Shown here in pieces: positions 7,320 to 28,092 of a stretch of DNA of 39,785 nt (position 1 is the stretch's first letter; the number at the start of each line of letters is the position of its first letter). This DNA comes from an uncultured Candidatus Saccharibacteria bacterium. Its GTDB lineage: Bacteria; Patescibacteriota; Doudnabacteria; UBA920. Where the stretch lies: NCBI GenBank assembly GCA_964589415.1, contig CAZPRQ010000003.1, positions 1 to 39,785 on the forward strand. The letters are read 5' to 3'. The notes beneath the pieces were generated by a model. That model saw nothing but the letters and a program-made list of their open reading frames with translations. It had not been told where the DNA came from and searched no databases. The position numbers were made by a program, and so were the translations under genes.

Positions 7320-7382
7320 AATAACTTTTGGTTAGCACGTGTTTACAATTACTAAAAATTATTTAATATAACACAGTTGTGG

Positions 7383-7469
7383 TGCGTCATTGCGAGGAGC
7401 ACACTCTACGAAGCACTCTCTAGGTAAGGTAGTAAAATAGATTGCTTCGGATGCACTCGCAATGACACA
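7383..7469. repeat. Repeat units B (plus orientation) and C (inverted), forming a hairpin upstream of the GIY-YIG gene
   Basis: Unit B at 7383-7420 reads GCGTCATTGCGAGGAGCACACTCTACGAAGCACTCTC. The reverse complement of 7439-7469 reads GTGTCATTGCGAGTGCATCCGAAGCAATC. Confidence 0.55.
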
Positions 7470-7532
7470 CGAAAATAGTTATCCTTTTCATAATTTTTAG
7501 TAATTTAGTCTATTTAGTATTTAGTAGAGGAC

Positions 7533-7587
7533 AAAAAAACCCCAGGATAGGACCACCGAATTAAAATTCGATGACCCAATCCTGGGG
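7533..7587 (-). terminator. Possible minus-strand intrinsic terminator, or the 3' end of an unassigned RNA
   Basis: CCCCAGGAT (7540-7548) pairs with ATCCTGGGG (7579-7587). The A7 run at 7533-7539 gives a T7 tail on the minus strand. The loop is long and partly self-pairing. Confidence 0.4.
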
Positions 7588-7866
7588 TCCGTGCCCTTAA
7601 CTTTAAGGGTAGGACGTTTCCGTCCCAGCTTGCCCTCAAAGCATACGACCAGCAATGAGAGCCTTTTCATCTAAAATAGTCTCTAGAACCAATTTTAGAT
7701 TCATTTATTTACTTCGTTCAGACTCCCTAGCTTGGTAGGCCAAGTACAAACGCCTGAAAGAACTAAAATAACTATACCAAAAGTAAAATGCTTAAGCAAG
7801 GCCACTTTTCCACATAATTTTTAGCCTTTATTTAAGCTATAAATACTAAATTTATGCTATTAGCTA

Positions 7867-8742: not shown

Positions 8743-9183
8743 ATGAGACTGATGATAACCTTAGGCTTGGCCGCCGCGGTTGCTCTGGCCGGATACTACC
8801 AAAAAACTGCCAGCTGGGAGCTTTCCCAGTATGACAGGAAAATGGGATCAATGGGCTTTGAAGCCAGAAGCAGGAGAGATGCGCTTCCGGGGACGGCCAT
8901 AATCCAGAGGGTGAACGGTGACATCTTGGCCCCAAATAAGGTCATCGTACACGCATGCCTTCCTGAACAGACCGCCTGCTATTGGGCAGAGGTAATGGAA
9001 ATGGCGGAGGGAAACCTGATGGGAGGCGGGGATTGGTACAACAAAAACAATAAAAAAATCAATCCACCAAAAGGCGGGGATCGACTTATCCAAGCCATTT
9101 CAACCTCCTGCGCCAAAGAATGGCCGGAATGGGCCAAGAGCGAGGTAAGGCCATATTTGGCCTATCTGGGAATTAACATCTGA
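8743..9183 (+). CDS. Small secreted or membrane-anchored hypothetical protein with 3 Cys
   Basis: The ATG at 8743 follows GAGGAAAAG. The N-terminus is MRLMITLGLAAAVALAG. I recognise no family. The ORF-track TTG start at 8719 would overlap the upstream gene. Confidence 0.5.
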   Translation: MRLMITLGLAAAVALAGYYQKTASWELSQYDRKMGSMGFEARSRRDALPGTAIIQRVNGDILAPNKVIVHACLPEQTACYWAEVMEMAEGNLMGGGDWYNKNNKKINPPKGGDRLIQAISTSCAKEWPEWAKSEVRPYLAYLGINI

Positions 9184-23409: not shown

Positions 23410-24522
23410 TTAACTTTTCTTTAATGCTTCTTTCTTAGCTTCCACATCCGCCTTTTGGAGGGCGGCTATAATGGGGGAGAACTTGCCTTCCATTATTAAA
23501 TTTATCTGGTTGAAGTTTTGGTTTATGCGGTGGTCGGTTACTCGATCCTGGGGAAAATTGTAAGTGCGTATTTTTTCGCTGCGGTCGCCGGTGCCAATTT
23601 GGCTTTTGGTGAGGTCGCGCACTTTTTTATTTTCTATTTCTTCATAGTGCGCGGCAACACGGGCGCGAATAACTTGCAGCGCTTTTTCCCGGTTTTGGGC
23701 CTGCGAGCGTTCATCCTGGCACTGGGCAGTTATACCTGTCGGGATGTGGACTATTCGGATAGCTGAATACGTAGTATTAACCGACTGCCCGCCGTGGCCG
23801 GACGAGGTGGTCGCTTCCATTTGAAGGTCTTTGGGGTCTATGGCGTAATCTTTTTCCTCCAAGATAGGCAATACCGCCACTGTAATGGTAGATGTGTGCA
23901 CTCGGCCGCTCTTTTCGGTTTCCGGAACTCTTTGCACGCGATGAACTCCAGACTCGTACTTAAAAATCCCATACGGCGCCCCAAGAGGGTCATCCTCTCT
24001 TCCGGAGAGGATGACCCTCTTGCCAAAAGAATGTTTGGAGTGAATTTCAAAAATAACTTCCTTAAAGCCCCCGGCTTCACTTTTAGAAGCAGACACAATA
24101 TGCGGCTTAAAACCGCACTCTTCCGAAAATTTTCCGTAAGCACGAAACATCTCCGCCACAAACAAGGTCGCCTCGTCGCCGCCCGCGCCGGCTCTAATTT
24201 CCACAATACAACCCTTGTCGTCATTTAGATCTTTGGGCAGTAAGGCTTCCTCAATTTCTGATGTAAGATTTAATATAGCGGATTTAAGCCCAACTACCTC
24301 TTCTTCAGCCATTGCCGCCATATCCTTATCTGAACTTTGGACTAACTCGCCCGCGTGTTTTAAATCCAATTCCATTTTGGCCAATTTACTGACCTTCTCT
24401 ACCAACGGGGCAAGCTCCGACTGTCGCCTGCCTAATTTACCAATATCCAAAACGCCGCCTTTGCTTAAATCTGCGGTAATTTGATTATATTCATCTAAAA
24501 TTTTCTGAAATGCCGTTTCCAT
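23410..24522 (-). CDS. prfA: Peptide chain release factor 1
   Basis: PET (PxT-type) tripeptide in RVQRVPETEKSGRVHTS and the GGQ motif in SGHGGQSVNTT. 370 aa, including an extra segment encoded by a palindrome. Confidence 0.9.
   Translation of the reverse strand: METAFQKILDEYNQITADLSKGGVLDIGKLGRRQSELAPLVEKVSKLAKMELDLKHAGELVQSSDKDMAAMAEEEVVGLKSAILNLTSEIEEALLPKDLNDDKGCIVEIRAGAGGDEATLFVAEMFRAYGKFSEECGFKPHIVSASKSEAGGFKEVIFEIHSKHSFGKRVILSGREDDPLGAPYGIFKYESGVHRVQRVPETEKSGRVHTSTITVAVLPILEEKDYAIDPKDLQMEATTSSGHGGQSVNTTYSAIRIVHIPTGITAQCQDERSQAQNREKALQVIRARVAAHYEEIENKKVRDLTKSQIGTGDRSEKIRTYNFPQDRVTDHRINQNFNQINLIMEGKFSPIIAALQKADVEAKKEALKKS
23982..24022. repeat. Perfect 18-bp inverted repeat with a 5-nt spacer inside the prfA coding sequence
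   Basis: CAAGAGGGTCATCCTCTC (23982-23999), TTCCG, then GAGAGGATGACCCTCTTG (24005-24022). It shares the 13-mer AGAGGGTCATCCT with the interior of the 24541-24691 element. Confidence 0.75.
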
Positions 24523-24540
24523 ACATTATTCTTAACATAT

Positions 24541-24691
24541 TTAGGACTTACGCACCTCAAGAGGGTCATCCTTGCGCAGAATCATTTTGATTTATAGCCA
24601 ATGCCTGATTATTATCAGATTTTGCGTTTTTAAAATATCGCCTGCGGCGCAAGGATGACCCTCTAAAGATTATGCAACGCGTAAGCCCTGA
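24541..24691. mobile_element. MITE-like palindromic element with no ORF and TTAGGACTTACGC-type termini
   Basis: The left end is TTAGGACTTACGC. The reverse complement of the right end is TCAGGGCTTACGC. A nested inverted repeat is formed by AGAGGGTCATCCTTGCGC (24560-24577) and GCGCAAGGATGACCCTCT (24647-24664). Confidence 0.5.
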
Positions 24692-24783
24692 CTTAATATA
24701 TTATACATCATACTTGCTTAAATAACACAAAACCACCCATAAGCTAAACGAGGGGGTGGTTGTTGTAATACTTATGGTAATTG

Positions 24784-25044
24784 CTATTTTTTTGCCCTAA
24801 TCTTGCGTTCTTTTTTTGGCTTAGCTTCCGCTTTAATTTTAGCGGCAACCAAAGTGCGTTTTTTAAACCTATCAACGTTTCCGGTGGTATCTAGAAGTTT
24901 CTGTTTACCGGTATAAAATGGGTGGCAGTTGCTGCAAATTTCAGTATGCACTTTTTCCACGGTTGAGCCGGTTACAAATGTGTTGCCACAAGCGCAGGTA
25001 ACCTTCGCGTTATTGTAATATTGCGGATGAATGTTAGATTTCAT
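24784..25044 (-). CDS. rpmE: 50S ribosomal protein L31 (Zn-ribbon type) with a Lys-rich C-terminal extension
   Basis: [10 protein letters not shown]...CACGNTF...[13 protein letters not shown]. Confidence 0.9.
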
Positions 25045-27821: not shown

Positions 27822-27908
27822 GGGCAGGTAGCGAAGCGGTCAAACGCGACTGACTGTAAATCAGTTGGCTTTATGCCTTCATAGGTTCGAATCCTATCCT
27901 GCCCACCA
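27822..27908 (+). tRNA. tRNA-Tyr, anticodon GUA, with a long variable arm and encoded CCA
   Basis: Acceptor GGGCAGG/CCTGCCC, anticodon arm ACTGA-CTGTAAA-TCAGT, variable stem GGC/GCC, T arm ATAGG-TTCGAAT-CCTAT. Confidence 0.85.
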
Positions 27909-27912
27909 TTTT

Positions 27913-27940
27913 AAAAACATCGCAAAATTGCGATGTTTTT
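27913..27940. terminator. Bidirectional hairpin terminator after the tRNA pair
   Basis: AAAAACATCGCAA pairs with TTGCGATGTTTTT. The A-run before and T-run after allow it to act on both strands. Confidence 0.6.
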
Positions 27941-28092
27941 AAAATATCTCGAGCAAAACCGCTCGATGCGTGGCGTAGTCGAGGGGCAGGAATATTAAAA
28001 CCCGACTTACTAAAAATTTTAATTTCCGCCCTGTTAGGATTTGCTTCTTTTCCGAATTGCTTCCGCGTTAATTTCCGTTTAATTCAGCGCCG

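Follow-up and report, generated by a model that had tools for sequence, protein, structure and literature searches.

A perfect palindrome lying in frame within the release factor 1 gene of a patescibacterium is probably a compact, REPIN-like hairpin repeat

Repetitive extragenic palindromic (REP) sequences can occur as doublets called REPINs, which fold into hairpins and are mobilised by REP-associated tyrosine transposases, or RAYTs (Bertels & Rainey 2011, PMC3116915; Bertels et al. 2017, PMC5581495). REPINs are characteristically present in tens to hundreds of copies per genome, and RAYT genes are characteristically single-copy and vertically inherited. Another class of bacterial palindromes, the Rickettsia palindromic elements (RPEs), is found as in-frame inserts in many unrelated housekeeping genes, where they are translated at positions compatible with the fold of the protein. 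RPEs measure about 100-150 bp, belong to families that each have a conserved peptide, and are not known to have a transposase (Ogata et al. 2000, as summarised in PMC10969869). Here we describe a perfect palindrome located within prfA, the essential gene for peptide chain release factor 1 (RF1), on contig CAZPRQ010000003.1 of an uncultivated bacterium that resembles Candidatus Doudnabacteria. The whole of this contig (positions 1 to 39,785; 39,785 nt) is hereafter called the window, and its locus is labeled WIN (protein P0001). We consider it probable that this palindrome is a REPIN-like copy of a hairpin repeat that is tolerated in a surface loop of RF1, in a manner analogous to the RPEs.

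Several other types of small repeats are relevant for comparison. Members of the IS200/IS605 family of insertion sequences (ISs) insert without target-site duplication and recognise hairpins in single-stranded DNA. Miniature inverted-repeat transposable elements, or MITEs, are short non-autonomous repeats with inverted termini whose mobilisation presumably occurs in trans. Organelles contain mobile GC-cluster and double-hairpin elements, which are small hairpin repeats that spread in compact genomes, sometimes inside protein-coding genes, and some organelle hairpin elements are bypassed in translation rather than read. To our knowledge, Rickettsia is the only well-known case in which palindromic repeats are routinely translated inside bacterial housekeeping proteins. 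In a limited literature search, we found no account of hairpin repeats that lie in frame in patescibacterial genes.

The presence of the palindrome in frame within prfA is confirmed by the following features of the window.

23410-24522, minus strand: intact prfA, which encodes peptide chain release factor 1 of 370 aa (Pfam PCRF 3.8e-54, RF-1 6.6e-38)
23982-24022, no strand assigned: perfect palindrome in prfA, CAAGAGGGTCATCCTCTC-TTCCG-GAGAGGATGACCCTCTTG, with 18-nt arms, a 5-nt spacer and 18/18 pairing, 41 bp in total
23980-24021, minus strand: RF1 codons 168-181, peptide KRVILSGREDDPLG, the palindrome-encoded extra loop segment that is missing from the closest orthologs
23917-23925, minus strand: the PxT codon-recognition motif, here the tripeptide PET (residues 200-202), 19 residues past the insert
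23785-23793, minus strand: GGQ motif, residues 244-246, intact

The preliminary description of this DNA had claimed an 18-bp perfect inverted repeat with a 5-nt spacer inside prfA, a specific peptide encoded by it, and four occurrences of the 13-mer AGAGGGTCATCCT and its complement. All three claims hold. The repeat is read directly at 23982-24022, codons 168-181 encode the claimed peptide, and the 13-mer is present exactly four times in the window, at the positions that had been given (23984, 24008 on the minus strand, 24560, and 24652 on the minus strand). With up to two mismatches allowed, there are six matches in the window versus 0.36 expected, and none of 100 shuffles got to six. Furthermore, the longest perfect stem in the window is 18 bp, versus 12 in 40 first-order Markov surrogates of the window. 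Each arm of the prfA palindrome is itself a mini-palindrome (AGAGG-GTCAT-CCTCT and AGAGG-ATGAC-CCTCT in a direct reading). The palindrome at 23982-24022 thus consists of two inverted copies of a single repeat unit, joined as a compact doublet. The palindrome introduces no stop codons, and the tryptic peptides expected from the RF1 insert are VILSGR and EDDPLGAPYGIFK. A strong structure in the mRNA had also been proposed and is plausible, with a computed RNA fold of the palindrome of -39.2 kcal/mol (z = -5.05).

Two spurious open reading frames (ORFs) of 128-144 aa overlap prfA and also read across the palindrome (23794-24228 on the plus strand and 23838-24224 on the minus strand), which represents a pitfall for gene callers. 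The plus-strand ORF reads KRVILSSGEDDPL, almost the same peptide as the RF1 insert, because the DNA is palindromic.

Window RF1 aligns from end to end with solved RF1 structures (PDB; best E 2.9e-86), and its homologs are the RF1 proteins of Candidatus Doudnabacteria and other Patescibacteria. Residues P200 and T202 are invariant in a family alignment of 37 homologs, as are G244, G245 and Q246 of the GGQ motif, and PET is aligned to PVT of Thermus RF1. The insert thus precedes the PxT motif, as had been stated previously. The same alignment reveals that protein length varies between FEIH.. and PY.IFKYESGVH, and that there is a second variable site near the N-terminus.

The size of the insert depends on the reference. 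The preliminary description had estimated roughly 18 extra residues and had suggested alignments with orthologs and with RF1 structures. Its estimate stands relative to classical RF1 proteins, given that Thermus RF1 has a gap of 17 residues precisely at the insert position, but not relative to close orthologs. The closest Doudnabacteria orthologs are 356 aa in length, and their loop is 13 residues shorter than that of window RF1. Thus, orthologs that lack the palindrome carry a short loop rather than one of equal length. One such protein, P0002, is 86.5 % identical to window RF1. (P-numbers denote homologous proteins, and L-numbers denote the fetched loci of relatives or metagenome contigs.) At the DNA level, the closest orthologs (P0002, L001, L002) have no hairpin at the loop, and the region folds at -9.6 to -20.5 kcal/mol, versus -50.6 kcal/mol in the window.

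An AlphaFold model built from the 37-sequence alignment is poor (mean pLDDT, the predicted local distance difference test score, of 59.9). In this model, residues ~163-185 are placed between consecutive beta-strands (153-162 and 186-192) with pLDDT values of 31-39, and the insert is accordingly predicted to lengthen a turn between two beta-strands of domain 2. A new surface loop on RF1, which had been offered earlier as one consequence of the insertion, is plausible, with the model being too poor to judge the loop itself.

A second copy of the repeat resides in the interval immediately upstream of prfA, where the following features are present.

24560-24577, no strand assigned: left arm of an intergenic inverted pair, AGAGGGTCATCCTTGCGC, which has CAAGAGGGTCATCCT in common with the prfA palindrome
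24647-24664, no strand assigned: right arm of the intergenic inverted pair, GCGCAAGGATGACCCTCT
~24542-24690, no strand assigned: composite hairpin between rpmE and prfA, whose outer stem, GGACTTACGC/GCGTAAGCC (9-10 bp), encloses the 18-bp inner stem and the 69-nt spacer
24784-25044, minus strand: rpmE (ribosomal protein L31), the upstream neighbor, an ORF with PF01197 at the same position in syntenic loci

The two arms form a perfect 18-bp inverted repeat (18/18 pairing) with a 69-nt spacer. Their starts are 87 bp apart, which is the usual REPIN geometry, and thus the intergenic copy has a typical REPIN span. The DNA fold of the entire element at 24542-24690 is -33.1 kcal/mol (z = -6.2). This element had been called MITE-like, and its terminal inverted repeats (the 18-bp inner stem and the outer stem) do resemble those of a MITE. 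The perfect inner repeat is real, but as we found no other full-length copy, the MITE label is unproven. Specifically, a BLAST search with 24535-24700 against the window and all fetched loci, which together are a small sequence space, returned the arms alone. In addition, no direct repeat indicative of a target-site duplication is evident by inspection at the borders of the element, and we identified no parent IS whose ends match, with no IS being present in the window. By these features, the element would differ from both MITEs and IS200/IS605-derived palindrome-associated elements. Pending the genome, it is better described as a REPIN-like doublet than as a MITE.

The loop that carries the insert in window RF1 is also extended in other members of the family. 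Over 116 homologs the modal loop length is 12 aa, and in 24 of these the loop is extended to 15-26 aa. We read nine insert-bearing loops as DNA, of which eight are perfect palindromes with different sequences and stems of 15-22 bp, and one is decayed. The insert is therefore not a one-off event, because different palindromes recur at this loop in many relatives. The nine loops are as follows.

WIN (P0001): CAAGAGGGTCATCCTCTC-TTCCG-GAGAGGATGACCCTCTTG, 18 bp stem
L081 (P0008): GAGAGGATGACCCTCTCG-CAG-CGAGAGGGTCATCCTCTC, 18 bp stem
L082 (P0037): GGAAAGAGGGCTCCCCTCTC-CGGA-GAGAGGGGAGCCCTCTTTCC, 20-22 bp stem
L083 (P0010): AAAGGACTGTCCTCTT-GG-AAGAGGACAGTCCTTT, 16 bp stem
L105 (P0028): CCCCTTGAAGATTCCCATC..., 20 bp stem with a 9-nt loop
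L106 (P0054): CCACAATGGGCACCATTGTGC-A-GCACAATGGTGCCCATTGTGG, 21 bp stem
L108 (P0005): GCAAGAGGACGGCCCTCTTG / CAAGAGGGCCGTCCTCTTGC, 20 bp stem
L111 (P0048): CACAAGGGGCATCCTTGTGC-T-GCACAAGGATGCCCCTTGTG, 20 bp stem
L107 (P0111): decayed copy, no stem given

The palindromes of L081, L082 and L108 are of the same design as that in the window, with each unit being a short palindrome. The L081 loop even holds the 15-mer of the window, with the arms swapped, in another reading frame (ERMTLSQREGHPL) and with flank junctions at different codons. These differences argue for an element that exists at the DNA level and for independent events. Loci L106 and L111 carry palindromes at the same site that differ at three arm positions, and all three differences are compensated on the opposite arm. 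Their peptides shift in step (TMGTIV../..HNGAHC versus TRGILV../..HKDAPC). Moreover, the insert peptides of different lineages are unrelated (KRVILSGREDDPLG, ERMTLSQREGHPL, STMGTIVQHNGAHCG, PLKIPIKGHDGNLQG). Because arm differences are compensated and the peptides are unrelated, it is the DNA hairpin rather than the peptide that is conserved.

Locus L106 also includes a sister copy of its prfA palindrome, located between genes right behind prmC (7655-7695) and bearing one compensated change. This sister copy and the sharing of CAAGAGGGTCATCCT in the window indicate that a prfA palindrome belongs to the repeat family of its own genome. The earlier proposal that a hairpin of a repeat family landed in an essential gene and was kept in frame is thus upheld by the short-loop orthologs, by the arm shared with the intergenic copy, and by the intact PET and GGQ motifs.

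A test for palindrome compatibility that uses only the peptide yields, at a stem of at least 19, 12 cases in the loop, two elsewhere and one at the N-terminus. At a stem of at least 14 this test is too permissive (130 matches in 120 shuffled proteins), and we therefore relied on real DNA.

A second insertion site in RF1 is located near the N-terminus, behind 'MSSGG' (L082 prfA codons ~25-35), and is extended in 12 of 100 homologs. At this site, L107:7273-7302 is a perfect 30-bp palindrome, TCCGCCAAAGGCGGA|TCCGCCTTTGGCGGA, with the peptide SAKGGSAFGG, and L082 carries the same palindrome with one mismatch. A palindrome or extension at the N-terminal site is listed for P0037, P0053, P0066, P0090, P0097, P0102, P0111 and P0117. 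At the protein level, P0070 and P0099 have inserts of ~36 aa there in which a peptide is repeated internally (NIEIRAGDNGGGDVFIRAGDAGPSGSGGNVTMRAGD).

Palindromes of this kind are also found in genes other than prfA. We scanned metagenome contigs for the pattern AGAGG-N5-CCTCTC-N2-5-GAGAGG-N5-CCTCT, which has 22 specified bases. This architecture was found at 20 loci, and 11 of these are true palindromes with complementary cores. The in-frame copies are as follows.

L087: in-frame palindrome in RecR
L090: in-frame palindrome in LigA
L091: in-frame palindrome in a DinB-family polymerase
L093/L096: in-frame palindrome in Fmt, with a second palindrome also present
L101: in-frame palindrome in RecJ, with a second palindrome also present
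L102: in-frame palindrome in RF1 (the same gene as L082)

Similarly, four loci of relatives (59 kb) contain 14 perfect palindromes with a stem of at least 12, versus none in shuffles. In syntenic relatives, prmC is affected as well. In L081 (3505-4542) and L082 (3240-4298), it has in-frame inserts of ~60 aa and ~45 aa, respectively, that consist of strings of small hairpins (z = -7.3 and z = -7.5). Perfect palindromes are likewise present in prmC of L084 and L107. We saw no internal hairpin insert in rpsB of the syntenic loci, which varies at its termini only.

Several additional observations concern prmC. The inserts of L081 and L082 sit past the RPETE motif and comprise four to six consecutive small hairpins, and L106 prmC has a further insert at a second site. 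In L107, a perfect 16-bp palindrome with no loop (8988-9019; ACATTCTGACATTCTG|CAGAATGTCAGAATGT) lies over a conserved part of a PrmC of normal length (HSDILQNVRMS). Therefore, a palindrome can overlap 'native' sequence without adding length. Window prmC carries a degraded version at the place of the L107 palindrome, in the codons for FIHSDILQNMRMS (fold z = -2.2).

The same type of palindrome also brackets candidate transposase genes of the IS200 type (Y1). The 1.3-kb contig L097 carries a Y1_Tnp gene (Pfam 2.2e-11) with one palindrome 43 bp upstream of the transposase start, another 4 bp past its stop, and a third in frame in the C-terminal part. A homolog of this transposase (38 % identity, E 2e-33) is encoded by L095, where one palindrome lies directly downstream of the gene and one with the same core is in frame inside it. 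The sole NCBIfam match of both proteins is NF047646, REP-associated tyrosine transposase (REP_Tyr_transpos). Both proteins have the Y1 transposase fold with its HUH motif and catalytic tyrosine, as read in the translations from PNHFHLL / PNHFHFL and from YIHRNP / YIHNNP (YI..NP). A sequence search for a relative of the Y1 transposase in the PDB found none. The arm cores of RF1 palindromes also match those near the transposases, specifically L108 with the copy beside the L095 transposase (ACGGC/GCCGT) and L083 with L097 (ACTGT/ACAGT). A weak transposase homolog is located in L090, 1.7 kb from the LigA palindrome. Furthermore, the 62-kb contig L109 encodes a 60 %-identical homolog between two inverted ~45-nt repeats that agree at 36/45 positions.

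The RAYT-like transposase family is abundant in Patescibacteria (homologs P0121-P0240). Most of these homologs are on contigs of ~1-2 kb, as would be expected if the genes lie between repeats at which short-read assemblies break; that the genes are multi-copy could be an alternative reason. The in-gene palindromes of the two transposases (L095:303-338 and L097:325-358) read RTAPLQEGRPL and QRTVLSREDSPL.

These elements share several characteristics with REPINs. Each is an inverted doublet of a short self-palindromic unit and forms a long hairpin, the copies in one genome resemble each other, and on the related contigs L097 and L095 a Y1/HUH transposase gene, for which RAYT is the best family match, is bracketed by repeats of the same design. 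However, there are also differences. Classical REPs and REPINs are extragenic by definition and imperfect, and they are found in Proteobacteria. In contrast, the elements described here are in Patescibacteria, are perfect, have collapsed to spacers of 0-9 nt (34-44 bp in total), and lie in frame within essential genes such as prfA, with copies in relatives also inside RecR, LigA, DinB, Fmt, RecJ and prmC. In the window, the prfA copy departs from the extragenic location, whereas the second copy is intergenic. For the element type, a compact, REPIN-like REP doublet that is linked to RAYT-like Y1 transposases is a better description than a MITE.

The resemblance to RPEs is one of design. In both cases, a bacterium with a small genome carries palindromic repeats in frame in housekeeping genes that are unrelated to one another. 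The elements here differ in being only 34-44 bp, in being read in different frames (KRVILSGREDDPLG versus ERMTLSQREGHPL) to give unrelated peptides, and in being linked to Y1 transposases. They also differ from the organelle elements, because all copies here are in frame with no sign of bypassing.

Given these comparisons, it seems reasonable to propose how the palindrome came to be in prfA. It would be one copy in a family of very small hairpin repeats, in which a short self-complementary unit (AGAGG-GTCAT-CCTCT in the window) is present twice per copy, in opposite orientations. The architecture would be that of REP doublets compressed to 34-44 bp, and the prfA copy would represent the intergenic pair collapsed to a 5-nt spacer. 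A RAYT-like Y1 (HUH) tyrosine transposase, which, by analogy with REP/RAYT systems, might recognise the folded hairpin in single-stranded DNA, may generate the copies and maintain their similarity. We infer that the copies in this genome have been mobilised or homogenised by such an enzyme. In essential genes, an insertion would survive only if it lands in a permissive surface loop, preserves the frame and introduces no stop codon, and this restriction would explain why the RF1 loop is repeatedly occupied or retained. The insert would then be translated as a tolerated and probably disordered surface loop, from an mRNA whose hairpin of -39 kcal/mol presumably has to be unwound by the ribosome.

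Several observations weigh against this proposal. The NF047646 scores of the L097 and L095 proteins (51 and 45 bits) are below the curated RAYT cut-off of 80. Both contigs are short metagenome contigs of unknown taxon, and the named transposase homologs belong to Gottesmanbacteria, Microgenomates or 'Patescibacteria group' rather than to Doudnabacteria. The 39.8-kb window contains no Y1 transposase gene and only two doublets of the palindrome family. Among the sequences compared, we found no filled/empty polymorphism between near-identical genomes, and we saw no conserved target sequence or target-site duplication at the insert junctions. Finally, the RF1 loop is occupied in approximately one-fifth of relatives, which is more than simple random insertion predicts. 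Therefore, strong filtering, or some site preference or retention, is needed.

This excess at one loop brings up the possibility that the hairpin is a selected regulatory structure specific to prfA, such as a pause site or an RNase III target that tunes the level of RF1 or its co-translational folding. Such a role would fit with the high stability of the window hairpin, with perfect hairpins of 15-22 bp at one loop in many lineages despite unrelated sequences and with compensated arm changes, and with the frequency of extension at both RF1 sites. However, the closest orthologs and most homologs do without the hairpin, and decay is seen in one copy at the loop and in one at the N-terminal site. 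Same-design palindromes are also found in unrelated genes, between genes and bracketing transposase genes, and the prmC genes of relatives have multi-hairpin inserts as well. Furthermore, RF1 is the gene that was inspected most intensively. We therefore regard prfA-specific regulation as unlikely. The same applies to a pair of bolder propositions, by which occupation of the loop would reflect selection beyond filtering: either REPIN-like hairpins and RAYT-like transposases routinely generate in-frame loop variation in core proteins of Patescibacteria, or the domain-2 loop of RF1 is maintained as a landing site, with the mRNA hairpin there adjusting how much RF1 is made. Both must be considered speculative and improbable.

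Palindromes might instead arise in place, by template switching or hairpin-primed repair at a quasi-palindrome, with the likeness to the intergenic copy resulting from gene conversion. Correction of quasi-palindromes by template switching is well established as a source of mutations, and it would account for perfect arms, for the lack of a target-site duplication or conserved target, and for junctions that differ among lineages. Three findings are left unexplained, however: the recurrence of the AGAGG-N5-CCTCTC design across many genes and contigs, the identical units that flank Y1 transposase genes, and the match of each genome's prfA copy with its other copies. An origin in place is thus quite unlikely.

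It could also be argued that the insert is an adaptive feature of the RF1 protein, with selection at the peptide level for a new contact surface and with palindromy being incidental. This would be in keeping with an insert that is kept in frame in an essential factor near its decoding elements. However, the insert peptides are unrelated between lineages while the pairing of the DNA arms is retained throughout, one DNA unit is used in more than one reading frame, and AlphaFold predicts the segment at very low confidence. Such an adaptation strikes us as highly improbable. An assembly or amplification artefact is scarcely credible: chimeric reads can yield palindromes and the window is a single metagenome contig, but the ORF is intact and in frame, equivalent palindromes are at the same codon position in independent assemblies (JGI, ENA, NCBI, Logan), and the P0037 RF1 gene was recovered identically from two sources, L082 and L102.

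A tolerated, REPIN-like repeat copy is therefore the explanation that we favor, and it has several implications. Because palindromes are in frame in RF1 and other housekeeping genes, "extragenic" hairpin repeats can live inside proteins in these organisms. This would be an exception to the 'extragenic' rule for REPs, one that is recurrent in a translation factor and that comes with a candidate transposase. A compact REPIN-like family would then do in the reduced genomes of Patescibacteria (the Candidate Phyla Radiation, CPR) what Rickettsia elements do, with a candidate transposase that is absent from the Rickettsia case. Such repeats would explain part of the odd length variation and some spurious "hypothetical" peptides in CPR proteomes. 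Annotators and structure predictors should also be cautious, as loop inserts of 10-20 residues in these proteins may be repeat DNA rather than functional features. The system might be tractable for learning how essential genes acquire and retain hairpin repeats, and it raises the question of how ribosomes handle perfect hairpins of 18-22 bp within the mRNA of a translation factor.

We also looked for other structured or regulatory elements in the window. Rfam at its gathering threshold reports tRNAs only. A known RNA family for the hairpins was rejected as a candidate, as a permissive Rfam pass returned miRNA-precursor models that are far below threshold and represent generic hairpin matches. 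A promoter/terminator scan gave nothing exceeding shuffle expectation.

The rpmE-prfA interval is variable in relatives. It holds a gene of the 23S_rRNA_IVP family in L111 (2580-2948), in L084 (267-1915) it comprises a small ORF and a gene of the TrmB family, and in L081 (1479-1946) an unannotated 155-aa gene replaces rpmE.

Additional repeats are present elsewhere in the window. A different intergenic inverted repeat at 7347-7505 has 50-nt arms with 76 % complementarity, 59 nt apart, and the core GTGCGTCATTGCGAG / CTCGCAATGACACAC. It may represent another repeat family, and an imperfect 24-nt palindrome comes after it, at 7539-7588. Lastly, a perfect 18-bp AT-rich palindrome, ATTTTAAAAACATCGCAA/TTGCGATGTTTTTAAAAT, is located at 27908-27945, directly after the tRNA at 27822-27905, and the rpmE-prfA element has, in its spacer, a match to the 14-mer at 27935-27948.

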